Virus record (IMG/VR): IMGVR_UViG_3300041583_000385
Span: 1-64,000 of that record
Source of the DNA: a virus
Direction: 5' to 3' (one strand)
DNA length: 64,000 nucleotides
Positions 38,092-62,248 of this stretch are shown in pieces. The first letter of the stretch is position 1; each line of letters starts with the position of its first letter. Under the pieces are notes generated by a model that saw only the letters and a program-made list of their open reading frames with translations, was not told the DNA's origin and made no database searches. The translations under genes and the position numbers were made by a program.

Positions 38092-39072
38092 ATGAATTGC
38101 GATTTAATAATTGATGGAAATTACATTCTTAGTCGTTTGGTTTTTACTTTACACAAAAATAATTTACTTTACGGGGCGTTACACAAAGCATTAGAAAACT
38201 CTATGCTTAAATATAAAAAATGGTACCCATTTGCTAATATTTACTTAGTATCTGATTCCAAAGAGAAATCCTGGAGAAAGAAATATATAAATGAGTATAA
38301 AGGTACTCGAAAGAAAAATACTGATATTGATTGGAAGTTTGTTTATGAAGCTTATGGTGAGTTCAAGGAGTCTATGGTTGGTACTATGGAAGTGCTTGAA
38401 GCACCACATATAGAAGGTGATGATTGGATAGCATATTTGTGTGAAAAGGCTAATGGTGAAGGAAGATCAACACTTATAGTATCAAATGATTATGATATTA
38501 AACAAATAGTTAAGCATAGCTTTGATCCACTTTGGATTAATATGATGACTAATGAAATGTATAATAAGGAAAAGTTATTTCTACCAAAGAACTATCAAAG
38601 CTTTATTAACAAAGTGCAAAAGATACCAAATGATGATATCTTTAATATAAATGATAATACTGAATTTTTGAGATTCTTAAATGGGTTTATCAAAAAGTAT
38701 GAAGTTATTGAGATAGATTATATGGAATCATTAATGGTTAAGATTATATCTGGTGATAAGTCCGATAATATAGGATCTGTTTGGTCTGTTACTAAAAATG
38801 GTAGAAAAAGGGGTATTGGATCTAAAGGTGCTCAAACTATTTATGATGAATATTTGGTTGAATTTGGGGAAATGAGTTTTGATGATCCAGACTTAAATGA
38901 AAATATAGCTGATTTAATTTGTGAAAAAAAGAAATTAAGTAAAAGTAATATAGAAGTGATTGTGGAAAATATAGAATCTAACTTTAGGTTAATAGATCTG
39001 AGATTATCTAGTCTACCGGTAGAAGTGGTTAATAAAATGAAAACAACACATGGACAAAAACAAAGCAATTAA
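38092..39072 (+). CDS. rnh: T4 RNase H-like 5'-3' exonuclease
   Basis: IIDGN, SWRK...YKGTR, EGDDWI, SNDYD, GDKSDNI, GIG. Confidence 0.85.
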   Translation: MNCDLIIDGNYILSRLVFTLHKNNLLYGALHKALENSMLKYKKWYPFANIYLVSDSKEKSWRKKYINEYKGTRKKNTDIDWKFVYEAYGEFKESMVGTMEVLEAPHIEGDDWIAYLCEKANGEGRSTLIVSNDYDIKQIVKHSFDPLWINMMTNEMYNKEKLFLPKNYQSFINKVQKIPNDDIFNINDNTEFLRFLNGFIKKYEVIEIDYMESLMVKIISGDKSDNIGSVWSVTKNGRKRGIGSKGAQTIYDEYLVEFGEMSFDDPDLNENIADLICEKKKLSKSNIEVIVENIESNFRLIDLRLSSLPVEVVNKMKTTHGQKQSN

Positions 39073-39439
39073 GAAGTGGACTCCTACTCCTATAATGGAG
39101 AACTTAGGTATTATGAATAAGCATTTGTCAGATACAATGTGTTTGTTTTGTGAGGATTATATTAGTAATAATCCTGATAGTCAAGATTTACCAGAAAGGG
39201 TAAATCAACTCTTGCTTAAATTACAAAATACTGAAAAGAGTGAGATTAAAAGAACATTATATAATCCAATAACTGGTGAAATTGAATATGAATTAGAGAA
39301 TGGGTTTATTATAACAGAAAAGAATAAATTTAAAAGAGAACCAACAACTGATGAATTAATATACTTATTTGGGGTTGATTTTGTTAGAGAGTTAAATCCA
39401 CAAATGTGGAGAGAATATTCATTAAATAAAATATTATAA
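39050..39439 (+). CDS. Hypothetical protein, C-terminal tag; N-terminus resembles a capsid-protein N-arm
   Basis: KKWTPTPIMENLG; ends WREYSLNKIL. Confidence 0.6.
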   Translation: MDKNKAIKKWTPTPIMENLGIMNKHLSDTMCLFCEDYISNNPDSQDLPERVNQLLLKLQNTEKSEIKRTLYNPITGEIEYELENGFIITEKNKFKREPTTDELIYLFGVDFVRELNPQMWREYSLNKIL

Positions 39440-39829
39440 ATGGCAGAATTAATTGATGTTGCTAATGCAATGTTTAGAAATAAAAGTGAGTGGGTGAAGA
39501 TAAGTGATGAGGATAAAGAGAAAAACTTCTTTATATTCAATCGATACTTTTCTAAAAAGTTTCCAGATAAATCACAACTTCTTAACTCTAAGTTAATAGA
39601 TAAAGTATCTTCTATGGACTTATGGTATTATTTTATGTTAAATAAATCATACCCTAATTGGTTTTGGTCTAAAAGTGCTAAAGAGAAGCCAATTATACCA
39701 AATAAAGATTTTAAATTACTTTTGACGAAGTTAAAGGTTAAAGATTTAGACTTACATTACTTAATTGAAAATCATTTTGATTTTATAAAAGAAGAGCTTT
39801 TATATTATAAAAAACTTATGAAGTTATAA
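39440..39829 (+). CDS. Possible clamp-loader small subunit (gp62-like)
   Basis: FIFNRYFS ... WYYFML ... W..K pattern; near rnh. Confidence 0.4.
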   Translation: MAELIDVANAMFRNKSEWVKISDEDKEKNFFIFNRYFSKKFPDKSQLLNSKLIDKVSSMDLWYYFMLNKSYPNWFWSKSAKEKPIIPNKDFKLLLTKLKVKDLDLHYLIENHFDFIKEELLYYKKLMKL

Positions 39830-39875
39830 TTTATAAAAGAGGAGTTTAATTTTAATATATAAAATAAAATTCTTC

Positions 39876-40611
39876 ATGGTAGTTTGTGTAAAATGTCTTT
39901 TTGATAAAGAAGAATCGGAATTTAGTAAAAAATCTAATATTTGTAAAAAATGTAAAAGAAAAGAAGCTTATGATAGATTTAGGATAAATAATCCGGACAA
40001 GATGAAAAAATATCATAAGAAATATTATGAAAATAACAAAGAAGATATTATAAAAATTAATACCAATTACTATCAAAATAACAAAGAAGAAAGATTATTA
40101 AAGAAGAAAGATTACTATCAAAATAACAAAGAAGTGATTTTATCAAAGAAGAAAGATTACTATCAAGTAAGTAAAGAAAGTAAGAAATTATATAATAGTA
40201 AGTATTATGAAAATAACAAAGAAGATATTATAAAATCTAATGTTAAATATAAAAGAATGAGATTGGAAAATGATGAAATGTATAAATTAACTCATTATAT
40301 GAGGGGTTTGATTATGTCTGGGTTCACAAGAAAGAATATTAAAAAGGATATTAAAACAGAAAACATTTTATGTTGTTCATTTGAAGAATTTAAATTGTAT
40401 CTGGAATATAAATTTGAAGAATGGATGAATTGGGATAATAGGGGGGTTATATAATGGTGAGTTAAACCATGGATGGGATGTTGATCACATAATCCCTCTA
40501 TCAACAGCAAAGACAGAGGAAGATATAATAAGGTTAAATCACTATACAAACTTACAACCTTTATGTAGTAAAGTTAATAGGTATATTAAGAAGAATAAAT
40601 TAATAAATTAA
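39876..40611 (+). pseudogene. HNH homing endonuclease with +1 frameshift in a G6 run
   Basis: YYQNNKE repeats; removing one G at 40441-40446 gives WDNRGLYNG...WDVDHIIPLS...NHYTNLQPLCS..N. Confidence 0.75.
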
Positions 40612-40613
40612 TT

Positions 40614-41165
40614 ATGAAAATGAAAACAAGAGAAATACAAGACACAACAACAATGAAATGGTATACTATTAGAACACAATCTAATAGAGAGAAAAGCGTT
40701 TCTGAGAAAATAAAAAAAGAACCTGAATTGAAAAGTTCAGTTGGTGAAGTAATTGTTCCATTAGAACAAGTTTACAATCTTAAAAATGGTAAAAAGGTAG
40801 TAAGAGACAAAATAATGTTCCCTGGTTATATCTTTGTAGAGGCTAGTTCTATTGGTGAGTTGAAATATTTCCTAAGAGGGTGTGATGGAGCTACTGGATT
40901 CTTAACAGAGAGAGATGGTAGTATTAAACCTATGAAAGAAAAGGAAATTAATAGAATTATAGGTCAGCAAGAAGAACAAAAGGACCTTGATATCAGTGAT
41001 TTGTTTATTGTTGGGGAAGATATAACTATAACTGATGGTCCATTTGATACAATGGTTGGTACTATTGAGAGTATTAATGGTGATAAAGTTAAAGTTAACG
41101 TTTCTATTTTTGGTAGAAAAACTCCATTAGACCTTAGTATAATGCAAATAAATAAAAAGAACTAA
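40614..41165 (+). CDS. nusG: Transcription factor NusG
   Basis: KWYTIRTQSNRE, FPGYIFVE, KOW ITDGPF, VSIFGRKTP. Confidence 0.92.
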   Translation: MKMKTREIQDTTTMKWYTIRTQSNREKSVSEKIKKEPELKSSVGEVIVPLEQVYNLKNGKKVVRDKIMFPGYIFVEASSIGELKYFLRGCDGATGFLTERDGSIKPMKEKEINRIIGQQEEQKDLDISDLFIVGEDITITDGPFDTMVGTIESINGDKVKVNVSIFGRKTPLDLSIMQINKKN

Positions 41166-41171
41166 AACTTT

Positions 41172-41360
41172 TTGAATAAGGATTTAATAGATAAAATATT
41201 AGATGCTTCTAATAAAATACACAAAGCATCATTAAGAAGTCAGTCTAATTATATCATAACTAGTCAGGTTTTTAATGATGCTTTGAATAATATATTTAAT
41301 AAGAAATCTGATAGGATAAATAAAATCAATTACGATAGAATCATTTATCATAGATGTTAA
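41172..41360 (+). CDS. Mini-protein resembling a major-capsid-protein segment, followed by scrambled remnants to about 41700
   Basis: KILDASNKIHKASLRSQSNYIITS...DAL, then DRINKIN. Confidence 0.4.
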   Translation: MNKDLIDKILDASNKIHKASLRSQSNYIITSQVFNDALNNIFNKKSDRINKINYDRIIYHRC

Positions 41361-41699
41361 ATCAAGAGTACCATATACACAACAATTACAAATGGAATCC
41401 ATCATAAGAGATAATATAACTAACATTCGATCAAAGAATGATTTTATCCCTGACTCTATTAACGATAAACTAAATTCACTATGAAGAATGACTAGAGATA
41501 TAACCAAAGATCTATATAATACAATGATGGCTATGAATAGAATGAGAAAAATTAAAAATATATTTAATGAGAGCTAAGTGGGAATTAATGAAGGAATTAA
41601 TGAAGACTGGTGAACAGTATATTAGTACAGATTGGGCTATAAAAAATATATTAAATATATCAAAGTAAGAATTCAGAAAAGAGAAAATTAAAAGAATAT

Positions 41700-42122
41700 T
41701 TGATGGAGAGTAAAGAAGAAAGATACGAGAAAACATATTTAAGAATGGCTAGAGAATGGGCAAACCTCTCACATTGTACAAGGAAACAGGTAGGAGCTCT
41801 TATAGTTAAGAATGGTATGATTATATCAGATGGTTATAATGGAACACCCACAGGCTTCGATAATGCTTGTGAGATAGAAGATGGCACAACAAGTTGGAGT
41901 GTTATACATGGAGAAGCAAACGCTATCTTGAAATGTGCTAGACATGGACATTCTTGTGATGGTGCTACTTTATATCAAACACATTCACCTTGTAGAGAAT
42001 GTTCTAAATTAATATTACAATCAGGTATAAAAAAGGTAGTTTATATTGTGGAATATAAAGACACATCTGGTTTAGACTTTTTAATAGAAGCTGGAATAGA
42101 AATTAAGAGATATGATGTTTGA
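41700..42122 (+). CDS. dCMP deaminase
   Basis: VGALIVK, GYNG, HGEANA, SPCRECSK. Confidence 0.92.
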   Translation: MMESKEERYEKTYLRMAREWANLSHCTRKQVGALIVKNGMIISDGYNGTPTGFDNACEIEDGTTSWSVIHGEANAILKCARHGHSCDGATLYQTHSPCRECSKLILQSGIKKVVYIVEYKDTSGLDFLIEAGIEIKRYDV

Positions 42123-42609
42123 TGTATTTGTAAATGAAATTAAAGCTGTAAGTCCTAAGAGAGAACTATCCGTATTCCCAATATCTGAATATAATTTAGA
42201 AGCTATCAAATATTTAGTTGAAAATTGTGAAATGGGTAATAACGGACCAAATATTAATGTTAGGTTAGCAACCTTTAATACATCACTTTGGTTAGGTGAC
42301 TTTCTTGATAAATATTGGGATAAGATATCATATGTGTCAAAGTTACCAGCTTTTAATATCATTAAAGTTGAGGATGGTTCTATTGTTGTGAAGACTTATG
42401 AAACAAAATCTGATACATTTGATAATGAAGAAGAGTTAGATAAATTCTTTGAAGATGGTAAATGGAAGAAGTTTGTAATATACAAAGTGTCTAAGTTCGC
42501 AGATATATCTAAAATGACTAGTTTTTATACTATTAGGTATGCTGATATAACTGAAAAGTATGAAGTTAGAGATAAAAAAATAGAACATATCTTGGGTGAT
42601 ATTAAATAA
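42112..42609 (+). CDS. Hypothetical protein, C-terminal tag
   Basis: Ends VRDKKIEHILGDIK. Confidence 0.7.
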   Translation: MMFDVFVNEIKAVSPKRELSVFPISEYNLEAIKYLVENCEMGNNGPNINVRLATFNTSLWLGDFLDKYWDKISYVSKLPAFNIIKVEDGSIVVKTYETKSDTFDNEEELDKFFEDGKWKKFVIYKVSKFADISKMTSFYTIRYADITEKYEVRDKKIEHILGDIK

Positions 42610-43513
42610 ATTCCTTTCTATATTTAATAACAGCTAAATCTTTAGCCTTTGCCTCAATCTCCGTATCAAAATCAAGACCATAAGTTTTAATTTCCTCATA
42701 GATATAATCAGCATGCGCTGTTTTTCTACTAGTTTTATCTTCTAATGTTTTTGATGAACTCATATGTGTTAATACTCTTGTTTTCCAAGTAGAGTGTGCT
42801 AGTTTTATAGATTCTTCCATACTTTGATCCTGTGGACCAAATAGGAAGTGATGTTGGTCAAAAACAATTGGAATACCTATTTTGTCATATAACCACTCAT
42901 GTAACATCTTAACAGAGTATTGGTTCGGTGAATCATCATTCTCAATAGTTAATCTCTTTTTACAAGATTCACTCAATTCACTAAATCTATCTACAAATCT
43001 TTGAGCAGCTTCTTCTCTAGTTGGTTTTGTTGTATTGATATGTATATTTATCGGATAAAATGTCGATTGATCTAATCCCATTAAATCCATTATCTCAGCG
43101 TGTTTATTTAATTCTTTTATAGTTTTCAAAACCACTGATTCGTTCTCAGATGCTAATACATTAAAGGGGCCTGGGTGGTATGAAACTCTAATATTATTAG
43201 ATTTAACCTTATCACCAATTTCTAATAATAAGGATTGTATTTTGTTAAAATTTGGTAGATCTTCAAATTCATATTCAGACATCCATGGAAATGAATCACT
43301 AGACATTCTATAAATATAGATATCTTGGCTTAGATTATAATCTAAAACTTTCAAAGTATCTTTTAGATTATCTATTACCAACTCAGAGACATATGTTATA
43401 CCTTTTGATATAAAGGTTTTCTTTATCATTCCCCTATTAACCTTAATATGGTCTTTTGGTCTTTTATTTATATTACACCCCATTGAGATGCAGCAATATC
43501 CTATATTATTCAT
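42602..43513 (-). CDS. uvsE: UV damage endonuclease UvsE
   Basis: IGYCCI, YRMSSD, SYHPG, INIH, IENDD, VFDQHH, HADYI, EAKAKD. Confidence 0.9.
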   Translation of the reverse strand: MNNIGYCCISMGCNINKRPKDHIKVNRGMIKKTFISKGITYVSELVIDNLKDTLKVLDYNLSQDIYIYRMSSDSFPWMSEYEFEDLPNFNKIQSLLLEIGDKVKSNNIRVSYHPGPFNVLASENESVVLKTIKELNKHAEIMDLMGLDQSTFYPINIHINTTKPTREEAAQRFVDRFSELSESCKKRLTIENDDSPNQYSVKMLHEWLYDKIGIPIVFDQHHFLFGPQDQSMEESIKLAHSTWKTRVLTHMSSSKTLEDKTSRKTAHADYIYEEIKTYGLDFDTEIEAKAKDLAVIKYRKEFI

Positions 43514-43584
43514 TATACAAATATACAAATTTAATATTTATATCACAAATTATAAAAGGTTATGATATTTTAATATATATGTTT

Positions 43585-44151
43585 ATGATAGTTAGAAAAT
43601 ATTTAGATTTTATAAAAGAAGAGTTTCAAGAAACTCCAGAGAGTTATATATCAACCGCATTAACAGCAATCAAACAAAAGATTGATAAAATGTTTGATTT
43701 CCAAGAAGGTGATTTAGATAATCCACCAGAAGCAGAAGAAGACCCAACAAAGATTAAAAAACTATCAACAAAGGATAGTAATAAAATGAGCTTTGAAGAT
43801 TTGGGTGTTACTTTAGAGAGTTCTGAGATTTCAAAATATTCTAAAATGTATGACTCATTAACTGTAAAATATACGGATGATGAAAATACATATACTTTAA
43901 TTCTTATGATAGATATTAAAGAAGCTATTCCTAAAGATCCAGAAGAAAATTTCGACAGTGATGATATAGAAAAGTGTTATATTAAATTCAAAAAATATAG
44001 CTTAGATAATCTTACTGAAATAATTGGACAAATTAGTAAAAATATCGATATAAAAGATATCGATGAAGAATTCCTAATCGATCTAAAAATAGAACTTGAT
44101 GATAAATTTGGTGGTGATAACGATGAATTCGAAATCGAAACCAACAAATAA
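43585..44151 (+). CDS. Acidic protein with CTS-like N-terminus
   Basis: MIVRKYLDFIKEE after TAATATATA. Confidence 0.65.
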   Translation: MIVRKYLDFIKEEFQETPESYISTALTAIKQKIDKMFDFQEGDLDNPPEAEEDPTKIKKLSTKDSNKMSFEDLGVTLESSEISKYSKMYDSLTVKYTDDENTYTLILMIDIKEAIPKDPEENFDSDDIEKCYIKFKKYSLDNLTEIIGQISKNIDIKDIDEEFLIDLKIELDDKFGGDNDEFEIETNK

Positions 44152-44160
44152 TTAATCATC

Positions 44161-45036
44161 TTGAAATACTTAAAGAAATATAAAATATTTGAATCTAGTG
44201 GTTATTTGGATCACTACCTAAGTAAGTTGGGTGCTACTAAAGATGATATAAGAGATATATTTTCAGAAGTTATTGATCAGGGTTATGAATTAAAATTAAA
44301 AGTACTTTATCAAGATTCCAATGGGAGAATAAGAATTAAAAAATCAACAGCAAGTGAGAATCCCATACTTAAAATCTCTTTATCATCTGATAAAGTATCA
44401 TATGTTGGTGGAAGTGTCAAATTTGATAGCATAACATATATAGAAACAATATACCACTCATTATCCAGGTTTATAAACACATATGGGTCTAATATTAAAA
44501 AGATAACTTATGAGTTAGATAATAAAGCTGAAATAACTGTAAATTGTATTTTTGAAACTGAAACTGATGAGTCTAAATTAAAAATATCAAAGAATGATAT
44601 TTTTAATTGTGTTAGAAAGGCTTTGTCTAATAAATTACCGGATGGTTATAATGATTCTATATCTTTTAAAGATTTTCAAGGCACTCACGGGATTATTAAA
44701 ATGTCAGATTTATATAAACTAGAGAAATACAAGGAATTAAGAGAAATTCTGAGAAATTCTGAGGAGAAATACATAAATAATTATAAAGAGATAGAATCAT
44801 TATGTTCTGTATTAAGGGATGAAATAGCTATTGAACTATCATTAAAAAGTGGTGGTGATATTAGATTTATTAAAAAGGATAGAACAGAAGGAGCCCTTTA
44901 TGTATTTATTGATAATGTTGAATCATATAGACTTGGTAATTTATCATGTTATGATAATGATTCTAGGAGATATTCTGAGAGAATTAAAACAGGATTTTTA
45001 TCAAAAAAGAATATAGAGGTTGAATTATTCTATTAG
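44161..45036 (+). CDS. CTS-type putative internal head protein
   Basis: MKYLKKYKIFES; IRDIFSEVIDQG. Confidence 0.7.
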   Translation: MKYLKKYKIFESSGYLDHYLSKLGATKDDIRDIFSEVIDQGYELKLKVLYQDSNGRIRIKKSTASENPILKISLSSDKVSYVGGSVKFDSITYIETIYHSLSRFINTYGSNIKKITYELDNKAEITVNCIFETETDESKLKISKNDIFNCVRKALSNKLPDGYNDSISFKDFQGTHGIIKMSDLYKLEKYKELREILRNSEEKYINNYKEIESLCSVLRDEIAIELSLKSGGDIRFIKKDRTEGALYVFIDNVESYRLGNLSCYDNDSRRYSERIKTGFLSKKNIEVELFY

Positions 45037-45088
45037 AATATCCGTAACACTAGATTAAAGGAAGCACATTCTATTTAATAAATAATCT

Positions 45089-45607
45089 ATGGGATTAAAT
45101 ATTGTTGCATCATATCAAACTATTACAGAATTTAAAAGATCTAGGTATTTTAAGATAAATCTTGGATTAGTTGCTACTGTTGAGAAAAATGGTAAAAGAA
45201 CTTTTAATCCTGATGATAAATTCAGTTACTATTATTATAGCCAATATAAAGCAACTATATATGGACAGGGTAATGTTGGTGATATAAAATTTTACGCAGA
45301 TCACTTCATAAAAGATAATACATTCGCTGTTTATTATGGTGATACATTCGAAGAATTTCTATTTAATTTTGATAGGGTAATGGTTAGTAAAAATAATATA
45401 GATTTTTATTTAGGTCACATATTAAAGAGTGTTGAGGAACAATATGAAGAAAGGGTTAAAAATAAAGAACTTAAAAAACTTGAAGTTCAACCGGAAGGTA
45501 ATGCTGAGAATATTCTTAAAAACCCAGGTAATGTTAATTACGCTGATTTGAAGGCATATTTAAAAACAAAACAAAATAGTAGATACAAAAATAATAACAG
45601 TTTATGA
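45089..45607 (+). CDS. Hypothetical protein, possible capsid A-domain derivative
   Basis: NIVAS ... IYGQGNVGDIKFYADHF..FAVYY resembles the gp23 G.L.G.IKVY.D motif. Confidence 0.5.
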   Translation: MGLNIVASYQTITEFKRSRYFKINLGLVATVEKNGKRTFNPDDKFSYYYYSQYKATIYGQGNVGDIKFYADHFIKDNTFAVYYGDTFEEFLFNFDRVMVSKNNIDFYLGHILKSVEEQYEERVKNKELKKLEVQPEGNAENILKNPGNVNYADLKAYLKTKQNSRYKNNNSL

Positions 45608-46635
45608 AACTTAAAAGAATTATAATGCTTAGAATGTCTGGTGATGATGTTCGTTGGATGCAAACTAAGTTAAAGGAATATGGATACCATAAAGGTAAGA
45701 TTGATGGATTTTTTGGACAAAATACATTAATCTCTGTTACTAATTATCAAAGATCTATTGGTATTAAAGCTGATGGTGTTGTTGGTCCACAAACTTGGAG
45801 TCAGATAACAAACCATTTAGAAAACAAAAAGCAAAAAGAGTCGGATGGTATTGAAGTTGATGTTGTGTTAACACCAATCCCTAGAAATGAAGATATCCCA
45901 TTTAAGATATCATATATCGGTGATGATTCATTAAAAATATATGATTGTTTTTTAGAAGATGATGAATATTATAAAACAGAGACACAAAAAGATACTATTT
46001 GGTTACATCATACTGCTGGTGGTTCTAGACCAGATTGGACAATTGGTGGATGGGAAAGAGATTATCAAAAAGATAAAAAAGGAAACCCAGTTTTAGATAA
46101 AGATGGTAACCAAAAATCATTAAGGGTTGGTACTCAATTTGTAATAGGTAGAAGTTCTTCGTCTAAGAAAGATGTATTGTGGGATGGAAAGGTTCTAAGA
46201 GCTTTTGATGATAGATATTGGGCTTATCACTTAGGTATATCAGGAAGTAAAAGTAAAGCGTTAAACTCAAAGTCTATTGGTATAGAGATATGTAATTATG
46301 GGCCATTGACATTAGGTAGAGACGGTAGATATTATAACTATGTTAACCGCCCTGTTAATGATGAAGATGTTGTTGAACTAGATAAGCCATTTAGAGGATA
46401 CAAACACTATGAAAGATATACAGACACTCAGATAGAAACTGTAAGAAAGCTTATACTATATTTGAAGAATAGATGGGATATACAGATAGAAAGTGGTATT
46501 TATGATGAAGAATGGTTTGAGTATAATGATAAATGGTTCTCAAATGGTGGAATAAGAAGTCATACACAAGTAAGAACAGGTAAGTTTGATATATTCCCAC
46601 AGAAGGAGATGATAGAAATGTTAAATAGTTTATGA
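45604..46635 (+). CDS. Endolysin: PG-binding domain + Amidase_2
   Basis: GDDVRWMQ..DGFFG..T..YQ...DGVVGPQTW; LHHTAG, SIGIEI, HTQVR.GK.D. Confidence 0.88.
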   Translation: MKLKRIIMLRMSGDDVRWMQTKLKEYGYHKGKIDGFFGQNTLISVTNYQRSIGIKADGVVGPQTWSQITNHLENKKQKESDGIEVDVVLTPIPRNEDIPFKISYIGDDSLKIYDCFLEDDEYYKTETQKDTIWLHHTAGGSRPDWTIGGWERDYQKDKKGNPVLDKDGNQKSLRVGTQFVIGRSSSSKKDVLWDGKVLRAFDDRYWAYHLGISGSKSKALNSKSIGIEICNYGPLTLGRDGRYYNYVNRPVNDEDVVELDKPFRGYKHYERYTDTQIETVRKLILYLKNRWDIQIESGIYDEEWFEYNDKWFSNGGIRSHTQVRTGKFDIFPQKEMIEMLNSL

Positions 46636-46847: not shown

Positions 46848-46855
46848 AAATTTTA

Positions 46856-47113: not shown

Positions 47114-47195
47114 TATCTATATATTAAATTTCAATATATTAAGTTTTGAATTTTATTTTTTAATATATAATACCAACAAAATAAAGTATTAGAAA

Positions 47196-48517: not shown

Positions 48518-50398
48518 TTAATCTACTTCTTCAAATGGAGTATCCTCTACTTCACCCTCATCAGTTGATTCACCTGATTCCTCAGATTCTTGTGTTTGTT
48601 GATATAGTCTAGTGCTAATTGCTGACCAAGTTTCATTCAATTTCTCAGATGATTCATCTATCTTTTCAATGTCTTGTTCAGAATGTGCAGTTCTCAACTC
48701 ACCAAGGTCAGAATTAAGAGAAGACATATCATCTTCTGTTAATTTCTCAGAAAACTCTTTAATTTGTTTCTCTGTTTGGAAGATTAAATTATCCGCCATA
48801 TTAACCTTATCAACTTTTTCTCTTTCAAGTTTATCTGATTCAGCATTAACCTCAGCCTCAGATTTCATTCTTTCAATTTCCTCCTTAGATAATTGTGAAC
48901 CACCTTCAATTCGAATTTTATTCTCTTTACCAGTAGCTTTATCTTTAGCAGAAACAGAAAGTATACCATTAGCATCAATGTCTAATGTAACTTCAACTTG
49001 AGGAATACCTCTTGGAGATGGCATGATACCATCTAAATGGAATCTACCTAAGTCACGATTATCCTTTGCCATTGGTCTCTCACCTTGTAAAACATGTATC
49101 TCAACTGATGGTTGGTTATCTGATGCTGTTGAAAACGTTTCCGACTTTCTTGTAGGAATTGTTGTATTAGCTTCAATTAACTTAGTCATTACTGAACCCA
49201 TTGTTTCGATACCAAGTGAAAGTGGTGTAACATCAAGAAGTAATACATCAGTAATACCTCCTGATAAAACAGCTCCTTGAATAGCCGCCCCAAGAGCAAC
49301 AACTTCATCTGGATTAACAGATTTGTTAGGTGCTTTACCAATAAAAGCTTCAATAGCTTTTTGAATAGCCGGGATTCTTGTAGAACCACCAACTAAAATA
49401 ACTTCATCAATATCAACCGGTTTAAGACCAGCATTTTTAAGAGCACTTTTCGCACAAGTGATAGTTCTATCTACTAACTTAGAAGTCATTTGCTCAAACT
49501 TAGCACTTGATAATTTCTTAACAAAGTGTAAAGGAGTTCCATCTTTAGCTGTAATATAAGGTAAGTTAATTTCAGTTTGTGTTGATGTTGATAATTCAAT
49601 TTTTGCTTTCTCTGCTGCTTCTTTTAATCTTTGAAGAGCCATAGGATCTTTTGATAAATCCATACCACTATCTGATTTGAATTCATCTATCATCCAATCA
49701 ATAATCGTATTATCAAAATCATCACCACCTAAGTGTGTATCACCATCAGTAGATTTAACTTCAAAAACACCATCACCAATTTCTAAAACTGAAACATCAT
49801 GTGTACCACCACCACAATCAAATACAAGTATTTTAGAATCTGTATTCTTCTTATCTAACCCGTAAGCTAAAGCCGCGGCAGTTGGTTCATTTATAATTCT
49901 TTCAACTTTTAGTCCAGCAATTTCACCAGCTTCAATAGTTGCTGTTCTTTCAGCATCACCGAAATAAGCTGGTACAGTTATAACTGCTCTTTCAACATCA
50001 TGTCCTAAAAATTCCTCAGCCGTCTTCTTCATTTTTTGAAGAATCATTGCTGAAATTTCTTGTGGTGTATAGACTCTATCATCTATTTGGACACCAGGTA
50101 CATTTTTACCAGTCTTCACTAACTTATAAGGTACTTTTGATACTTCACCTTTACAAGCAGAAAAATCTTTACCTATGAAACGTTTAATTGAATAAATCGT
50201 TTTTTCTGGATTAGTAACCGCTTGTCTTTTGGCTGGATCTCCCACCTTTCTATCATTATCTGTAAATCCAACAACAGATGGTGTTGTTCTTTTTCCTTCC
50301 GAATTAGTAATTACAATAGGCTCTCCACCTTGAACGACTGCAACGCATGAATTTGTGGTTCCCAAATCAATCGCGATAATTGTATTTTCTTTACTCAT
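48518..50398 (-). CDS. dnaK: Molecular chaperone DnaK
   Basis: [48 protein letters not shown]. Confidence 0.97.
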
Positions 50399-55222: not shown

Positions 55223-55257
55223 TTTTTATATATTAAAAAACCAGATAATTAATCTGG

Positions 55258-55485: not shown

Positions 55486-56034
55486 TTATTTAATAATACT
55501 TTTTATTAATTCATGGTAAACTTCATCTACTGTACCTTCACCATCAATTTCAATTATTCTTTTTTTGTAGAAATTTTTCAATGGTGCAGAGTCTTCGTTA
55601 TAATTTTTTATTCTTTTCTTTATAACATCTACACTAGAATCATCAGGTCTATTTGATGTCTCACCTCTTTTTAAATTTCTTTTAATCGTTGTTTCTTCAC
55701 TAACATTTATCCAAATGACTTTTTTGATATTTAACATTCTATCTAAACTAAGTCCTTGATTGTTTGTTCTTGGATAACCATCTATAAGATAAAATGTACC
55801 ATGTTTAATTGGTTTCTTTAATTCATTGAGAATAATTTTTGTTATCATTCCATCCGGAACTAAATTACCATCATCTATAATAGAAGCAATTTCTTTACCC
55901 AATTCACTACCAGATGCTTTCTCTTCTCTTAATAAGTCACCAGCACTAATTAATTTATAATTGTACTCATTTATAATCTTATTACAGATTGTTCCCTTTC
56001 CAGATCCAGGAGGTCCCACTATCACTAAATTCAT
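55486..56034 (-). CDS. adk: Adenylate kinase
   Basis: GPPGSGKGT, SAGDLLR, GNLVPD, LIDGYPR, RPDD. Confidence 0.92.
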   Translation of the reverse strand: MNLVIVGPPGSGKGTICNKIINEYNYKLISAGDLLREEKASGSELGKEIASIIDDGNLVPDGMITKIILNELKKPIKHGTFYLIDGYPRTNNQGLSLDRMLNIKKVIWINVSEETTIKRNLKRGETSNRPDDSSVDVIKKRIKNYNEDSAPLKNFYKKRIIEIDGEGTVDEVYHELIKSIIK

Positions 56035-56397
56035 ATTCCTATATCATTTAATTTTTCATTCCTTCTTTTAGAAATATACATTGGATAAGTTTTGACTTTT
56101 TTAACAAAAGTTGGATAAAAATCAGTTACGGTTAAAACTTCTTTGTTTTTGGAATCAGCAAAATACTCTGCTGATTCCCAATCTTCATCCCTCAATTTCC
56201 TAGATTTTGGCTTATAATATATATTATATTAAATAGGATCTAGGAAATTGAGTGAGCACATAGCCTATAAAATTTAGATGTTGGTTTTTGAACCATTATA
56301 TAATCTACCATTTCACATAACATTGGGTATAATTTTATCATACCCGCGGGTTTAAACCCATAACTATTTATAAAATCTTTTATCTCTTCCTCATTCA
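56031..56397 (-). pseudogene. Gene interrupted by an inverted duplication; 3' part ends in the tag
   Basis: MNEEEIKDF...HSIS* then ...MYISKRRNEKLNDIGI*; 15-bp inverted repeat at the break. Confidence 0.5.
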
Positions 56398-56808
56398 TTA
56401 AACTAACTTTTCTAAATTAGCATTTCTATTAACAATCTTATCACCACCCATTAGTCTTTTAACTACTTCAACAGTGAATTTATATGATTTACCTGCTTTG
56501 TTTTTAGCAATCACAGGATATTTTCTATTTCTTGTTTTAATCTCAGTTACTTCAAAAGTAATACCACCTTGGTCAAAAGACATACCAACGATATCTTGTG
56601 TAAATCCAATTCTTCTACAAACTGATTCATATACACCTTTAACAACATCATTCTTCACATTGGTTGATACCTTTAATTTAGTTGTGTAATATGCACTATT
56701 GAATGAAGCACCACCCAAAGATATTGTAACATTTTCTTCTGCTTCAATTTCTTTTAATGCTTTTTGAATTTTTGCTTGTATTGATCTTACTCTTGCTCTA
56801 TCTATCAT
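56398..56808 (-). CDS. Hypothetical protein, C-terminal tag
   Basis: RNRKYPV motif; ends NRNANLEKLV. Confidence 0.7.
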   Translation of the reverse strand: MIDRARVRSIQAKIQKALKEIEAEENVTISLGGASFNSAYYTTKLKVSTNVKNDVVKGVYESVCRRIGFTQDIVGMSFDQGGITFEVTEIKTRNRKYPVIAKNKAGKSYKFTVEVVKRLMGGDKIVNRNANLEKLV

Positions 56809-56868
56809 CTTTGTCTTTTTAGTGGTTAATAATTATAAAATATAAGGAATTTATTTAATATATACCTT

Positions 56869-57045
56869 ATGTATCACTTAAAATCATTCAAAATATTTGA
56901 ATCAAATGATAATTTAAATAATAAAGTTAATAACGAATTAATTCAAAATTTAAAAGATATATCACTTGACTTATTGGATAATCATACAAACTTACTAAGT
57001 AGAATTAAACAAATGTATCCAACTTATAAAATCAATTTAACATAA
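56869..57045 (+). CDS. Short CTS-type protein (probably internally deleted)
   Basis: MYHLKSFKIFES ... LKDISLDLLD; TAATATATA upstream; not in the ORF track. Confidence 0.55.
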   Translation: MYHLKSFKIFESNDNLNNKVNNELIQNLKDISLDLLDNHTNLLSRIKQMYPTYKINLT

Positions 57046-57225
57046 CACAGTCTTTGCCGCTTGGTATTGTTTCTCACTCAAAACTTTAAGATTTTTCTTA
57101 CCAACTAAAACCTTTTCTAAAGATTTTGATGTTTTAAGACTTCTTTGTAAAGAAAGTATAAAAGAGTTTTCACCATCATACTTTCTTATAAGTTTATTCA
57201 ATTCTAATTTTTCTTCTAATTCCAT
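57037..57225 (-). CDS. Small protein with LSEKQ motif
   Basis: YDGENSFILSLQ...LSEKQ. Confidence 0.55.
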   Translation of the reverse strand: MELEEKLELNKLIRKYDGENSFILSLQRSLKTSKSLEKVLVGKKNLKVLSEKQYQAAKTVLC

Positions 57226-57278
57226 TTGTTATATTTTTTTAAATTATCTTCTTTCCATAATGGTCTGAGGTTAAAGAA

Positions 57279-57920
57279 CTATTTAACACTAGCCTTTCGC
57301 CACCGTCTAGACCAATGTTCATCTGTTTGAACATGATTTGCTCGTACCCATTTAGATACATTCTCAGCAAAATCATCGTTGTGAAACATACCAGCGCTTC
57401 TAACTACAATTCCTTCTCTCTCACCACCTAATTCTGATTTCTCAGAAACTAAACTATCAACCAATTCTTTTAATTCTTTCTCTGAATTAACAATACCTTT
57501 GAATAAAACTGGTACTGTTGGTATATCTAATAGATAAGAATATTCTTCCACTGATTTCCATGGTACCCAAATATTATTATCTCTAACACCAAATATATAA
57601 AAGTATGATTTTAGATTAGTATATTCAATTGAGTGTATTCCTTCTAAGTTTTCACCAAAAAGAAATTCATCTGGTGATAGATTTCCTCTTACTTTAACAT
57701 CATGTAACTGTCTAACCTCTCTACTCCAAGGTGATGTAGTGTATGTTGCATGACTTCTAGCATAAACACCATCATTAGTCATTCCAGTATTTTCACCATC
57801 TAACTTTTCAGTAATAACAATCTGCTTACCTATTAACAAGGTAATGTCATTAGATATCTTATCATCACTTGTTGTACCAGGTGACCAGGGTAAATGATAT
57901 GTTCTTTGGTATTTTGACAT
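57279..57920 (-). CDS. RNA ligase family protein (Rnl2-like)
   Basis: KYQRTYHLPWSPG, TEKLDGEN, FGE, EGIVVR, KWVR. Confidence 0.85.
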   Translation of the reverse strand: MSKYQRTYHLPWSPGTTSDDKISNDITLLIGKQIVITEKLDGENTGMTNDGVYARSHATYTTSPWSREVRQLHDVKVRGNLSPDEFLFGENLEGIHSIEYTNLKSYFYIFGVRDNNIWVPWKSVEEYSYLLDIPTVPVLFKGIVNSEKELKELVDSLVSEKSELGGEREGIVVRSAGMFHNDDFAENVSKWVRANHVQTDEHWSRRWRKASVK

Positions 57921-57931
57921 AGATTTATATA

Positions 57932-58918
57932 TTAAGTACAAATATAACATGAAATTAACCATTCAACAAATTTATCAAAGGATTTTTTACCACCAAAGAA
58001 TCTAATAGGTTTAAAATGTTGTATTCCATCAAATTCTATGCAGATATTTTCATCAACCAAATAAAAATCAAATTTTAATTTATTTTTGAATTTACAATCA
58101 TCAAATGTTTTTTGTGTTTGGTGATTTATATTATTTTTTATTAGTATATACTCAATGTAATTTTCAAATTTACTTTTATTACAAACACTACAACCACATC
58201 CGGAAAAATGATCACTTATTACTTGTGTAAATATACGACCACACTTTTTGTGCTTTATTTCAATTTTTGAAAAAGCACCACTCAATTCTGATAATATAAT
58301 ATATTCATTGTTATGAATTTTATCAGATTTTTCTTGAACCATTTCCTTTGTTAATGGTGCGTTACCAGCACATTTTGGACACCCATGTCCAATTAGATGA
58401 GATGATACCAATTGGATATACTCATACCCACACTTTTTGTGCTTTATAAATGACTTCTCTGTATATTTAATATTATTAGATAATATCTCATATTCACTAT
58501 CCCAATATTCATTAGACCTATTTATTATATCAACACTTGATAACTTTTTATTACCATAACATTTAAAACACCTATCACCTCTTAAATGTCTATTTCCTAT
58601 TTGTGTAAATATTTCACCACAAACCTTATGCTCTATTTTAACTGGATAATTACCATTTTTAAATTCCAATATCACATATTCACTATTATGAATTTCATCA
58701 GACTTTTTTTGAAACATTTCTTTTGTTCTCCATACACCATCACAGATAGGACACCTATTTCTATTCAATAAGTGTGATAGTCTAGTTTCGAATATATGAC
58801 CACATGAATGTTTAAATTTTGATTTCTTATCTCCTTTTTTGAAATCTAATATTTTGAAATCTAATCCTGAGTTATCTATTCTATTTTGGTAGTCTTTTAA
58901 TGTTAATGTATTACCCAT
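57932..58918 (-). CDS. Homing endonuclease-like protein (repeated H..CG..F...H..G.GCP.C units + Vsr-like domain), C-terminus truncated
   Basis: Four zinc-ribbon repeats; FDFYL..IEFDGIQH then abrupt end. Confidence 0.75.
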   Translation of the reverse strand: MGNTLTLKDYQNRIDNSGLDFKILDFKKGDKKSKFKHSCGHIFETRLSHLLNRNRCPICDGVWRTKEMFQKKSDEIHNSEYVILEFKNGNYPVKIEHKVCGEIFTQIGNRHLRGDRCFKCYGNKKLSSVDIINRSNEYWDSEYEILSNNIKYTEKSFIKHKKCGYEYIQLVSSHLIGHGCPKCAGNAPLTKEMVQEKSDKIHNNEYIILSELSGAFSKIEIKHKKCGRIFTQVISDHFSGCGCSVCNKSKFENYIEYILIKNNINHQTQKTFDDCKFKNKLKFDFYLVDENICIEFDGIQHFKPIRFFGGKKSFDKFVEWLISCYICT

Positions 58919-58966
58919 AAACTTTATTTTATTTTTTACCTATAAACAATAAATTATATATTAAAT

Positions 58967-59452
58967 ATGAAAATTACTTTATGCGCAGAAGACCTAATAC
59001 GTAGGTGTGTATGGGACTCATATGTTTATTACATATTAGGATCAGACAAGGAAGGTCAAAAAATCTTAGCAGAAAACGAAGAGATGGAAATATCTGAACG
59101 TGATGCTTTAGTCATTGGTTTGTTAAAAGTTATCGAAACTGATAACCTTATACACAAATTCAATACTCATGTAGCTGAGTTTTTAGCAAACAAAACAAAA
59201 AAGGAAGGTACTTTACTATTAACTAGTAGAAGGGCTTTTGATAATACTGTTGATAAGTTCTTAGATAAATTTCCTGATTATTGGGAACCATCTGCTAACT
59301 GGACAAGTTCGTTAAAAGATTTAGTTGACTATATAGAAATATTCAAAACAAAATTAGAAGGATTGGAAATACATAAGATAGTTGATAAGAATATAACTTA
59401 TGAATTATATAATTCTAATCATATTAGAAAAATGCTTAAATTTAATTACTAA
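58967..59452 (+). CDS. Hypothetical protein
   Basis: 161 aa. Confidence 0.7.
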   Translation: MKITLCAEDLIRRCVWDSYVYYILGSDKEGQKILAENEEMEISERDALVIGLLKVIETDNLIHKFNTHVAEFLANKTKKEGTLLLTSRRAFDNTVDKFLDKFPDYWEPSANWTSSLKDLVDYIEIFKTKLEGLEIHKIVDKNITYELYNSNHIRKMLKFNY

Positions 59453-59455
59453 AAA

Positions 59456-59992
59456 ATGAAAGAAACAATTTCAAAGACTGTTGAATTTTTAAGAGACAAG
59501 AAATTATTAGATGTTGATAAAGATTCATTCAAAATAATTCATGATGAAGCTGGAGAGGTATCACTAAATGAACTATTAGAAGAATTTGCTGGTATGTGTG
59601 GTCAAAACGGAGCTGACTCACACATGAGATTAGCCGCTGAATTCGATAACTATAAAAAGAGAACTTCAAAAGAGAAACAAGACTTAGTAAACTCTACAAA
59701 GGTTAAAATGCTTAGTTCCATACTTGATATGGATAGTGATATATCACTTGCATTAAAATCTATAACAAATGAGGAAGCTAAAGAAGGAGTTTCACTTATA
59801 GCCTCTAAGGTAGATAGTTTTTTAAAATCACAAGGTATTGAATCAATACAAACAGATACTTATGATAGTGAAATTCATGAACCAATAAGTGTTGTTGACA
59901 TAGGTGAGTCTAAGATAGTTGATGTTATTAGTAAAGGATATACATTAAACGGTAAACCATTTAGATATCCTAAAATTATTTTAGGAAAATAA
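59456..59992 (+). CDS. grpE: Nucleotide exchange factor GrpE
   Basis: RLAAEFDNYKKR, YDSEIHE, KGYTLNG..R. Confidence 0.88.
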   Translation: MKETISKTVEFLRDKKLLDVDKDSFKIIHDEAGEVSLNELLEEFAGMCGQNGADSHMRLAAEFDNYKKRTSKEKQDLVNSTKVKMLSSILDMDSDISLALKSITNEEAKEGVSLIASKVDSFLKSQGIESIQTDTYDSEIHEPISVVDIGESKIVDVISKGYTLNGKPFRYPKIILGK

Positions 59993-60531
59993 TGTCTGAT
60001 AATAAAGTTACATTATTTGATATTAAATCTAACCTACAATATAGACAATATATAGTTTCAGAACTATCTAGTCGAGTTGATGATAAGTTGAAAACAGAAT
60101 TTATTAAGGTCATCAATCATGTTATTGATGACCCTAGTATATTTGATAGAGAAGATTTAGAAGGTAGTTTTTATGAGGGTGAAGATGATACACATGATTT
60201 AGTTTTACCAGCGGTTGCTAGGGTTTTGAACCAAGTATTTATAAAACCACCACCAATCTTCCAGGGGAAATATGATGAAGGTACTCGATTAGAATTATTT
60301 CAAACTATGTTTGATATTGATGAATTTAATGAATACTTAGTTAATATGTTGATAGAATCAAAGGGATCTTTGAGTAAATTCACAAATATTGATAGAACTG
60401 CTGAAACTTTATCACTAATAGTTGATAACTATATTGCTAAGTTAGTCACTGCTGTTTTGGAATCATATGATATAGATAATGACTTAATAAGACTTAAAAG
60501 AGAAAGAAAACTTAAATATTTAACAAAATGA
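59992..60531 (+). CDS. Hypothetical protein, C-terminal tag
   Basis: LVLPAVARVL; ends [11 protein letters not shown]. Confidence 0.65.
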   Translation: MSDNKVTLFDIKSNLQYRQYIVSELSSRVDDKLKTEFIKVINHVIDDPSIFDREDLEGSFYEGEDDTHDLVLPAVARVLNQVFIKPPPIFQGKYDEGTRLELFQTMFDIDEFNEYLVNMLIESKGSLSKFTNIDRTAETLSLIVDNYIAKLVTAVLESYDIDNDLIRLKRERKLKYLTK

Positions 60532-60842
60532 GGGTAGATTGGTATATTGATATTTCTGAACACATGAAAACAAAAAAAATGGCAGATCAAGTTATAAAGA
60601 CAGTGACTCCGTTGATGGATTATTTTTGTGAAAGGTTATCAGATCAAATAATGACTATTGAGAACATAGAAAAAACTTTTTCTGAGATTATAGAAGAAAT
60701 GCCTGTGATGAACCATAGGATAGTAGAAGTTAATGGTGAGAGGGAGTTTGTAATATATTATAATAGATGGGTTCGTATAAAATTGACGGACAGCACCAAA
60801 CAAATATATAGAGAAATAAAATTAACAAAGATATTATCATAG
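60528..60842 (+). CDS. Hypothetical protein, C-terminal tag
   Basis: Ends [11 protein letters not shown]. Confidence 0.65.
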
Positions 60843-60844
60843 TT

Positions 60845-61915
60845 ATGGCAAAAGATTATTACGAGATATTAGGAGTAGATAAAGGAGCATCAGAGGATAA
60901 AATCAAGAAAGCTTATCGTAAAATGGCGATGAAGTATCACCCTGATAAGAATCCAGATAATGAAGCGGCTGAGTCTAAATTCAAAGAAGCGGCTGAGGCA
61001 TATGATACACTTTCATCGAAAGAAAAGAAAGAAAGTTATGATAGATTCGGTCCGGGTGGTAGTCCATTTGGACAGGGTAACCCATTTGCTAACTCCGGTG
61101 GAGGTGGTGGATACGGATTTAATATGGAAGATATATTTAGTCAATTCGGTGATATTTTTGGTGGTCAATTTGGTGGTCAACAAAAAAGAACTAAAAAAGG
61201 ATCTGATTTAAGAATAAAAGTTTCTTTAACTATTGAAGATGTATTAAACGGTACTAGTAAGAAGATAAAATATAAAAGACAAGATTCTTGTAATAGTTGC
61301 TCGGGTAAAGGAGGAACTGATGTTAAAAATTGTATTCCTTGTGGTGGGAGAGGTAGTAGAATAATTCTACAACAAACACCATTTGGTCAAGTTAGGCAAC
61401 AAGCACCCTGTCCTGATTGTCAAGGTTCTGGTAAACAAGTGACTAATAAATGTGGTGTTTGTCACGGAGCTGGTACTAATGTTAAAGATGAAATTGTAGA
61501 GGTTGATATCCCAGCTGGTGTTTCAAATGGAATGCAACTTAATATGAGAAGTTATGGTAACCATATAAGAGATGGTGTACCTGGTGATTTACATATAATG
61601 ATTGATGAAGTTAGAGAATTCTATTTCAAAAGAGATGGTAATAACTTAATCGTTGAGAAAGAAATATCTGTTATAGATGCTATCTTAGGAGCACATCTTA
61701 AAGTTAAAACACCACACGGTGATTTACCATTGACAATAGATGAGGGGACTCAACATGGTAAAACTATTAGAGTTTCGGGTAAAGGAGTTCCTGATGTTAA
61801 TTTGGGACTTGGGGATTTATTTGTAGTTGTTAATGTTAGAATACCACAAAATATTTCTATGGATGAGAAGTATATACTTGAGAAGTTAAAGAAATCTAAG
61901 AATTTCGAAGCATGA
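60845..61915 (+). CDS. dnaJ: Molecular chaperone DnaJ
   Basis: J domain HPD, G/F region, four CxxCxGxG motifs. Confidence 0.96.
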
Positions 61916-62124
61916 TGAAACATCCAAAATTAAATAGTGTTGTGTATCATACTACTATGCCAAAAAAACCAATTGAGGGTAATATTTATTATAATTCGAT
62001 AGAATCAACTAATTATATTTACCAAGAAGATGGTAAATGGAAATCATTAACCTTTCATTCTGATATTTGGTATGGTATAAATGTTGATAGAAAGAAAAAA
62101 ATCAAGAATATTTATGAGCAATAG
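61912..62124 (+). CDS. Small protein with tail-fibre-like motif and C-terminal tag
   Basis: [12 protein letters not shown]...YIY...W; ends [12 protein letters not shown]. Confidence 0.6.
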
Positions 62125-62248
62125 TTATGTTGATTATATCACTACACACTTAGATAAAAGTATTACTTATTCCGAATATTTAGCTGAGAATTTAAATAAA
62201 AATATTGCTGCCGAATATTTAAGAAAGGAATCGAGAATGAATAATTGA
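62114..62248 (+). CDS. 44-aa ORF resembling a prohead core/scaffold repeat
   Basis: YVDYITTHLDKSITYSEYLAENLNKNIAAEYL; not in the ORF track. Confidence 0.4.
   Translation: MSNSYVDYITTHLDKSITYSEYLAENLNKNIAAEYLRKESRMNN

Follow-up and report, generated by a model that had tools for sequence, protein, structure and literature searches.

We have analysed a 64,000-nucleotide (nt) stretch of viral DNA, hereafter the window, which forms the first 64 kb of the 86,322-base contig IMGVR_UViG_3300041583_000385 (estimated completeness 12%) and contains a series of small open reading frames (ORFs), many of which end in a common C-terminal sequence, hereafter the tag. A first-pass annotation had proposed that six of these ORFs, named here by their first positions, are fragments of virion proteins, mostly tagged, and candidate immune decoys. 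Sequence comparisons indicate that three of the six, ORFs 39050, 41172 and 62114, are partial copies of the phage's own prohead proteins that have been maintained by selection. ORFs 59992, 60528 and 61912 are tagged ORFs of the ordinary kind, and their bodies are unrelated. The source of the contig is an uncultured, AT-rich T4-like megaphage, and the G+C content of the window is 24-34% when taken per 2 kb and mostly 27-30%.

By Pfam, the region that holds these ORFs encodes a 5'-3' exonuclease, a NusG-like protein, DnaK, GrpE and DnaJ. It also contains a dCMP-deaminase-like gene, named from matches to annotated phages, and a head-tail adaptor, the match to which at 62849 places a structural gene directly after the chaperone operon (Table 1).

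Table 1. Small ORFs under study and selected neighbouring genes in the window (aa, amino acids; MCP, major capsid protein).
Feature	Position	Strand	Length	Description
ORF 39050	39050..39439	+	129 aa	Candidate copy of the MCP N-terminus; residues 1-45 (39050-39184) correspond to the gp23-type MCP N-terminus
ORF 41172	41172..41360	+	62 aa	TTG start; candidate copy of a capsid core segment, MCP ~409-451
ORF 62114	62114..62248	+	44 aa	Candidate scaffold repeat copy; 55 aa if the start is 62081 (ORF list 62081-62248)
ORF 41567	41567..41713	+	33 aa	Followed by an in-frame TAA (41666-41668) and then tag-like FRKEKIKRIF; same class; absent from the first-pass list
ORF 59992	59992..60531	+	179 aa	Tagged, all-helical; between grpE and dnaJ; no virion-protein copy
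ORF 60528	60528..60842	+	104 aa	Tagged; between grpE and dnaJ; no portal copy
ORF 61912	61912..62124	+	70 aa	Tagged; downstream of dnaJ; motif P-x-x-P-x-E-G-x-x-Y-Y ... Y-x-Y ... W
ORF 45089	45089..45607	+	172 aa	Untagged; upstream of a 343-aa ORF (45604-46635); borderline MCP likeness
dnaK	48518-50398	-		Pfam
Head-tail adaptor Ad2	62849-63637		262 aa	phrog_211, E 1.5e-14; 91% identical to the W01 orthologue

The nearest records to the contig are two complete genomes of uncultured phages, LR745206.1 (W01; 634,780 bp, about 76% DNA identity to the contig over the aligned part) and LR756502.1 (W02; 642,428 bp). Crude ORF calling gave 935 ORFs in W01, 967 in W02 and 137 in the contig. Both genomes encode a Gp23-type MCP (Pfam PF07068; E 7e-26 and 5e-28) and a T4-type portal protein (PF07230; E about 1e-58), and a protein of about 700 residues is encoded between the two genes. 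In the 707-aa version from W01, residues 2-265 match the head maturation protease family phrog_207 (E 4e-30), and the part beyond residue 265 has about a dozen 14-residue repeats along with an acidic stretch and a domain at the C-terminus. This protein is read here as a protease-scaffold fusion in which the scaffold part is putative. Pfam and PHROG searches of the contig returned no MCP, portal or head-protease gene (Gp23: none at E <=0.01). Because the contig is without head genes of its own, the head proteins of W01 and W02 were used for all comparisons, and the mimicry statistics given below for window ORFs accordingly refer to relatives' head proteins rather than to those of the same phage.

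When the contig ORFs of up to 200 aa were ranked blindly against six head proteins, ORFs 62114 and 39050 came first and ORF 41172 fifth. ORF 39050, whose start overlaps the end of the exonuclease gene (Pfam 5_3_exonuc_N) by 23 nt, carries the tag WREYSLNKIL at 39407-39436. Aligned with residues 6-43 of the W01 MCP, it reached a Smith-Waterman score of 78 (z 10.8), which was attained by 0 of 500 shuffles (Gumbel P 5e-7), and tblastn against the MCP gave E 6.7e-4. The resemblance to the N-terminal arm of gp23 that had been noticed by eye is borne out at the level of the family. Profile comparison by hhalign aligned the family with the relatives' MCP profile over 44 columns (probability 95.7%, E 9.4e-9), and a family hidden Markov model retrieved the MCP from W01 as its top match (E 1.2e-6) and, in second place, a 157-aa miniature of the N-terminal capsid region (E 4.9e-6). 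The family comprises at least 73 representative clusters at E <=1e-3, of which 23 fall at E <=1e-10; a further match of the search, P0200 (1154 aa), was discarded as a spurious hit to a repeat protein. Among 40 aligned members, W10 (the Trp of KKW-x-P) and R121 (the tag Arg) are invariant, and K9 and P14 are kept in at least 90%. An AlphaFold2 model based on 40 relatives (predicted local distance difference test, pLDDT, 91.1; predicted template modelling score, pTM, 0.78) has three helices in the copied N-terminal part. The remainder comprises a fourth helix, a three-stranded sheet and a C-terminal set of three helices that ends with the tag. Foldseek found no match to this model in the PDB at E <0.25.

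ORF 62114 amounts to roughly 2.5 units of the 14-residue protease-scaffold repeat (tblastn E 6.9e-8 and z 14 against the W01 repeats), which agrees with its earlier description as a core- or scaffold-like repeat. It aligns to the central repeats, at residues ~289-440 of the 707-aa protein, and the C-terminus of the scaffold is not matched. As had also been noted, ORF 62114 lacks the tag; its W01 orthologue, ORF 460435, matches the scaffold repeats as well and ends in the tag SRKKKIKNLF. W02 has the scaffold repeats and contains no repeat mini-protein.

The case for ORF 41172 as a gp23 segment is carried by its family. On its own, its likeness to the MCP is marginal (z 3.75 and 4.28, P 0.002-0.005). 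Three 58-aa homologues (P0216-P0218), which begin with Met and have the tag-like C-terminal end SDRMNKIKRMFSV or a close variant (P0218: YYRMEKIKRMFNV), match positions 222-261 of Pfam Gp23 with E values of 1.5e-5, 1.1e-4 and 1.9e-4. P0218 scores 25.0 bits, above the Pfam cut-off, but covers only those positions of the 376 in the model. In addition, a 59-aa tagged ORF of W02 (501868-502047), which lies beside nusG as ORF 41172 does in the window, matches MCP 420-451 (P 1.2e-5); its orthology to ORF 41172 was judged by eye and position rather than scored. The tail of ORF 41172, RINKINYD, is a degenerate tag, and the ORF may be a decaying copy.

Scanning the six ORFs and four neighbours against Pfam and PHROG produced no significant match. 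ORFs 39050 and 41172 had no Gp23 (PF07068) match at E <=1 (gathering score 24.4 bits), and the best PHROG rows, 'tail assembly chaperone' for ORF 39050 (E 0.005) and 'internal head protein' for ORF 41172 (E 0.12), were not relied on. With lengths of 44-129 aa, a complete HK97-type capsid fold of several hundred residues is ruled out for the mimic ORFs, which are excerpts and not capsid proteins.

All six peptides quoted in the first-pass annotation are present where it placed them, and four of the six ORFs (39050, 59992, 60528 and 61912) fit the tag pattern; ORF 41172 has its degenerate tail and ORF 62114 none. The assignment to virion proteins holds, on sequence grounds, for ORFs 39050, 41172 and 62114, and fails for ORFs 59992 and 60528. 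ORF 59992 had been likened to the Gol-like region of gp23, but its z against the MCP is 0.3-0.6 and its family reaches an hhalign probability of 0.1%. That family comprises 22 listed proteins including the window's own, and the tag Arg is invariant in the 19 that were aligned. The AlphaFold2 model of ORF 59992 (pLDDT 67.7) had no PDB match by Foldseek at E <0.3. A motif fitted afterwards, LP[AVI][AVS].[KR][IV]..[QKN], is confined in W01 to the capsid protein, the capsid miniature and the ORF 59992 orthologue; it was built from these sequences and constitutes no test. ORF 60528, taken earlier for a piece of the portal protein gp20, scores z about -0.1 to -0.2 against the portal. Pfam and PHROG gave no family for it, Atlas yielded no usable feature match and structural neighbours that were weak and of no clear family, and its W01 orthologue is 62% identical. 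In both the window (58967-62248) and W01, ORFs 59992 and 60528 sit between grpE and dnaJ; in W02, grpE abuts dnaJ.

For ORF 61912, the suggested tail-fibre motif survives as a weak lead. Five sub-threshold PHROG matches (E 0.002-0.09) point that way, and the motif is conserved in three orthologues. Its Atlas neighbours are fibre-like (Mtd_N, collagen-type fibre and gp13 clusters; template modelling scores 0.52-0.59) but of low quality, the model having a pLDDT of only 0.51. The motif occurs in no other ORF of W01 or W02, and a profile search against PDB sequences gave no match at E <1.

The same class of gene is found in W01 and W02. Sequence comparison across the clade reveals at least seven small-ORF families with a tag or tag-like tail, each of which appears to hold a linear stretch of 9-50 residues from the MCP, the portal or the protease-scaffold protein inside an otherwise unrelated small body. 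Tagged ORFs 255010 of W01 and 277261 of W02 match MCP 494-539 (Pfam Gp23 308-356, E 2e-4). W02 ORF 466213, the tail of which is tag-like but degenerate, aligns with MCP 328-379 (Gp23 164-192, E 1.3e-3), W01 ORF 598978 has 11 of 13 residues in common with MCP 203-215, and W01 ORF 268830 and its W02 orthologue match the portal at about 285-300. The copied stretches thus include the conserved core of the capsid fold (Gp23 164-192, 222-261 and 308-356), segments that are probably buried in the folded subunit.

Untagged relatives of these excerpts also exist. In blastp and phmmer comparisons of small with large ORFs, untagged miniatures of 157 and 165 aa match MCP 8-118 (E 2.5e-19), an untagged W02 ORF matches portal 277-335 (E 1.7e-13), and two untagged families match MCP 32-85 and 54-147. 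Members of the latter two families are preceded by an upstream motif of head genes that is described below, and one of the families has an N-terminal motif resembling a capsid-targeting sequence (CTS). The miniature of MCP 1-125 is conserved at lengths of 148-182 aa and is found at W01 291407-291880 and W02 315773-316270 and in P0116-P0120. It contains the propeptide, the equivalent of the T4 Gol region, the next strand and an insert of about 50 residues with an internal tag-like NRDRKIDSI, and it adjoins genes that start with the N-terminal motif. Metagenome contigs as long as 35 kb also contain it.

How far could such likenesses arise without any specific function, as chance resemblance or as the debris of partial duplications in small tagged genes? 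Three of the six flagged similarities are not significant, as set out above. A genome-wide shuffle test of tagged ORFs only (25 shuffles, seven control proteins per genome, top pairs re-scored with 1000 shuffles) gave P 2.3e-4 for the best control pair. The matches to portal 482-497, MCP 203-215 and MCP 328-379, and that of window ORF 45089, are treated as borderline because the controls reach this value. The strong statistics of the main cases argue the other way, as does the distribution of identical words. When 631 small ORFs of W01 were compared with 210 large ones, only three pairs had an exact 8-mer in common, and all three joined a tagged ORF to the portal, the scaffold or the MCP. W02 gave five such pairs, one between the MCP and an untagged ORF and four that are paralogue-like, judged by sequence matches or common N-terminal positions (not each checked), and exact 6-mers were uninformative (372 W01 pairs spread over many proteins). 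By blastp and phmmer, four different small ORFs matched the MCP, and no other non-paralogous large protein was matched by more than one. Taken at the level of sequence, the excerpts are copied from the trio of MCP, portal and protease-scaffold protein only.

The pattern of substitution speaks to the same question. Eight segments were compared, one of which was anchored out of register and was set aside. In the other seven (six tagged ORFs and the 157-aa untagged miniature), between 3/8 and 7/13 positions per segment encode an identical residue with a different codon; because of this, the copies are taken to be old and kept at the protein level. At the one variable site of the portal stretch, moreover, the mimic matches its own portal, with S in W01 and P in W02. 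The window copies look decayed (a lost tag, an in-frame stop, a TTG start), and presence varies, ORF 39050 being absent from W01 and ORFs 59992, 60528 and 62114 from W02, which is what functionless genes would lead one to expect. Yet the frames stay open in an AT-rich genome while relatives are only 29-63% identical in these ORFs, and the copied residues of ORF 39050 are conserved across its 40-member alignment, including the invariant W10. With synonymous divergence lying beneath identical residues, we regard an absence of function as quite unlikely.

The tag is the clade's common C-terminal amphipathic helix and ends most of the mimic families. It spans about 14 residues, usually with one further residue after it, and was scored with the pattern R-[DEN..]-x-[KR..]-[IL]-x-x-[ILV] within the last 18 residues. 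This pattern was found in 138 of 935 W01 ORFs (about 3 expected from its internal frequency), 141 of 967 in W02 and 22 of 137 in the contig, and 130 of the 138 W01 tagged ORFs are at most 200 aa long. Tags are kept in orthologues while the bodies diverge. The possibility that the tag is a DNA or RNA signal was rejected: codon use at its conserved positions mirrors synonymous use genome-wide, and the tag is therefore a protein feature. About 48 internal matches to the pattern occur in W01, inside ORFs or near N-termini (e.g. 357716, 540503, 71455 and 194897); since good copies are also internal, the tag is not a strictly C-terminal signal. A second copy of the head protease was considered as a reader of the tag and dismissed, as phrog_207 has a single match in each of the genomes W01 and W02 and no match in the contig.

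Tagged genes lie in tight operons (median gap at most 1 nt) and differ from head genes in their upstream sequence. The motif [TA]AATATATA precedes the portal genes and the protease-scaffold gene of W01, and most of the W01 copies found within 200 nt upstream of starts lie 10-39 nt from the start. It was counted within 80 nt upstream of each gene class, where it was present for 1/138 tagged genes, 24/52 genes with the N-terminal motif and 146/745 others in W01, for 1/141, 40/70 and 147/756, respectively, in W02, and for 0/22, 4/12 and 19/103 in the contig. The single tagged gene with the upstream motif in W01, and likewise that in W02, has the N-terminal motif at its start too. None of the tagged mimics, ORF 39050 included, has [TA]AATATATA upstream. 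Judged by this motif, tagged genes probably stand outside the expression class of the head genes, and because the mimics sit in tight operons without it, their synthesis probably precedes that of the head proteins or is separate from it. A role of the tag in loading proteins into the capsid is less likely for the same reason, as tagged genes lack the head-gene motif. A k-mer search upstream of tagged genes brought out no clear early promoter.

The upstream motif often begins 13-14 nt before the ATG (in W01, and at 12994, 27476, 53122, 53963 and 56869 in the window), a spacing that leaves almost no leader and suggests transcripts with no leader or a very short one; alternatively, the motif may act in translation and not as a promoter. 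The N-terminal motif is a MKYLKKYKIFES-like start that occurs in many ORFs (27476, 32433, 44161, 51630, 52703, 53963, 56869 and others in the window) and aligns by eye with the stretch EYAEFHS of the MCP propeptide. In the 84-aa ORF at W01 93266-93520, a MKYLKKYKIFES-like start is joined directly to a copy of MCP 32-85. Among the 138 tagged ORFs of W01, only one has such a start.

It is tentatively hypothesized that the mini-proteins are competitive mimics aimed at a host factor that acts on newly made head proteins, which we consider slightly the most likely reading. Each mini-protein would occupy a factor that otherwise binds the same stretch of a new, unfolded or unassembled head protein. 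The factor would most likely belong to the host's defences, as a sensor, a protease or another component able to recognise head proteins, and the mimic would act as its antagonist or decoy, with the common tag serving as a handle for one putative partner. The copied core segments are probably buried in the capsid subunit, which would favour a partner for unfolded or nascent chains over an assembly interface, and the probable placement of the genes outside the head-gene class also fits. Trigger mimicry is, moreover, an established tactic of phages. Capsid, scaffold and prohead-protease proteins are described as immune cues in one report (PMC13728456), and the phage protein DSAD1 is described in another as one that 'mimics TTP to trap DSR2' (TTP, tail tube protein; PMC10973363).

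Several points weigh against such mimicry. A mimic of a trigger that is made early could itself set off the defence. The copied segment of ORF 39050 is modelled as confident helices (block pLDDT 82-92) in a compact fold, and so is probably structured and not a loose peptide. ORF 39050 represents the propeptide end of the capsid protein and ORF 62114 the scaffold, which together would make two sides of one assembly contact; in T4, by one account, the propeptide region of gp23 probably touches the scaffold and is cleaved away (PMC9546572). The 'non-late' status of the tagged genes is judged from the upstream motif, of which both MCP genes have only one-off variants. Untagged W01 ORFs 93266 and 554784 carry that motif, and ORF 93266 also has a start resembling a CTS, which plainly ties some copies of the MCP N-terminal region to the head. 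Several of the mimic matches, those at P about 2e-4, do not surpass the best control pair. The tracking seen at the portal site does not extend to a capsid site, where the W02 MCP has PMF and the mimic PIF. Finally, the window copies look eroded or dispensable, ORF 62114 being untagged, ORF 41567 having a stop before its tag and ORF 41172 combining a TTG start with a degraded tail.

A nearly as good, if still doubtful, explanation is that the mini-proteins are assembly modulators or head cargo. They would bind the phage's own prohead parts through the copied stretch, the propeptide copy binding scaffold and the repeat copy binding capsid or scaffold, and would tune nucleation or size, cap polymers or enter the prohead, as the core proteins and CTS-bearing internal proteins of T4 do. 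The pairing of a capsid N-terminus in ORF 39050 with scaffold repeats in ORF 62114 fits this idea well, as does the predicted folded state of the part copied by ORF 39050. Accounts of T4 hold that the N-terminal region of gp23, which the protease removes, influences head length and probably makes contact with the scaffolding core (PMC9546572, PMC9958956), and that short N-terminal propeptides direct unrelated proteins into the head (PMC9026906). The untagged small ORFs of relatives that copy the capsid N-terminus have the head-gene motif at -13/-14, one of them with the CTS-like start. The 148-182-aa miniature, present in several metagenomes, stands beside genes with the N-terminal start, and ORF 62114 lies within the grpE-dnaJ operon. 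The tagged mimics themselves fit less well, as none has the head-gene motif, and only 1/138 W01 tagged ORFs has the N-terminal start. Several of the copies come from the conserved capsid core, which in a folded subunit is probably inaccessible for binding. The L/I-x-E protease site that follows the copied propeptide reads I-M-E in the window copy of ORF 39050, but it is not conserved in the family, the position varying among E, D, K, Q, N, V and others in the 40-sequence alignment. ORF 62114, for its part, copies central repeats and not the C-terminal end of the scaffold, and W02 manages with scaffold repeats in the absence of a repeat mini-protein.

It is also conceivable, though very unlikely, that the excerpts are weapons against rival phages, early dominant-negative fragments that would spoil head assembly in co-infecting or superinfecting relatives. 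The copied stretches are the most conserved parts across the clade and so should suit the proteins of relatives, many of which are represented in the same data sets, and the gene context is non-late. The copies match the producer's own proteins at least as well, however, including at the S/P site of the portal, so the producer would be equally harmed, and no immunity mechanism is evident. Also improbable is a modular anti-immunity kit of about 140 small non-late proteins per genome with one reader of the tag. In such a kit, head excerpts would bait sensors before head synthesis and the tag would deliver them to a common sink for sequestration or destruction, much as the first-pass annotation had envisaged.

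Competitive mimicry has partial precedents. DSAD1 of SPbeta-like phages is likewise a phage protein that imitates a virion protein, in that case the tail tube, and is reported to fill the sensor pocket and block the real trigger (PMC10973363). Unlike DSAD1, which is one protein with a known sensor, the genes described here form several families with sequence-level excerpts of capsid, portal and scaffold, mostly tagged. Fragments of essential genes fused to a common module, and proposed to be decoys, are described for Bodo saltans virus (Deeg et al. 2018, PMC5871332). Its ankyrin-repeat proteins resemble the present genes in combining pieces of the virus's own essential genes with a recurring module, and in both cases the decoy function is a proposal. 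Bodo saltans virus is, however, a eukaryotic giant virus that uses pieces of catalytic domains and an ankyrin module (PMC5871332), whereas the present case concerns a phage, head excerpts and a short helix. No ankyrin or other Pfam domain was found in the six ORFs and four neighbours, and the likeness is conceptual only.

The CTS-bearing and core proteins of T4 (IPI-III, Alt, gp67 and gp68) also show a short head-related N-terminal sequence on unrelated proteins (PMC9026906, PMC9958956), and ORF 39050 has its N-terminus in common with the MCP propeptide. The T4 CTS proteins are described as made for and found in the prohead and cut at L/I-x-E (PMC9026906). The ORF 39050 family, by contrast, has no conserved cleavage site or head-gene motif and carries the tag of non-late small genes.

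The published literature, as searched here exclusive of supplements, offered no paper on tagged head-protein fragments in phages. To our knowledge, the trigger-mimic counter-measures of phages are single proteins. The Gol peptide of T4 gp23 and the Lit protease provide an example of a short linear capsid stretch that is recognised by a host defence, which Gol activates; a useful mimic must, unlike Gol, bind without activating. The Gol-equivalent stretch of the clade's MCP is copied in the untagged 148-182-aa miniature and not demonstrably in ORF 59992. Satellite proteins such as CpmB of the Staphylococcus aureus pathogenicity islands (SaPI) and Sid of P4 are small, related to or imitating head-assembly proteins, and compete in capsid assembly so as to hijack the helper. 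In contrast to these, the phage studied here copies its own proteins, and ORF 62114 represents central repeats and not the capsid-binding end of the scaffold.

Bacterial immunity detects phages by cues that include capsid, portal and scaffold proteins, and the present lineage keeps several separate small genes under selection, each with a different excerpt of its own head and most with one shared tag. If the excerpts mark sites recognised by sensors, they would amount to a sequence-level recognition map in an uncultured phage and to a general decoy design. If an assembly role is true, they would instead offer a clue to the control of a very large T4-type capsid.

Minor likenesses occur elsewhere in the window. 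ORF 45089 resembles MCP 433-506 with z of 6.1 and 6.6 (P 1.2e-4 to 2.1e-4), in the range of the best control pairs. Downstream of ORF 41172, the counterpart of ORF 41567 in W01 (485539-485694) is an uninterrupted 51-aa tagged ORF between nusG and the dCMP deaminase gene; its residues 25-39 resemble portal 483-497 at a borderline level (z 6.0, P 2.6e-4). In the frame at 41392-41565, an in-frame TGA (41482-41484) precedes the tag-like stretch NRMRKIKNIF. The single stops before tag-like stretches at 41392 and 41567 could reflect gene decay, sequencing error or read-through.

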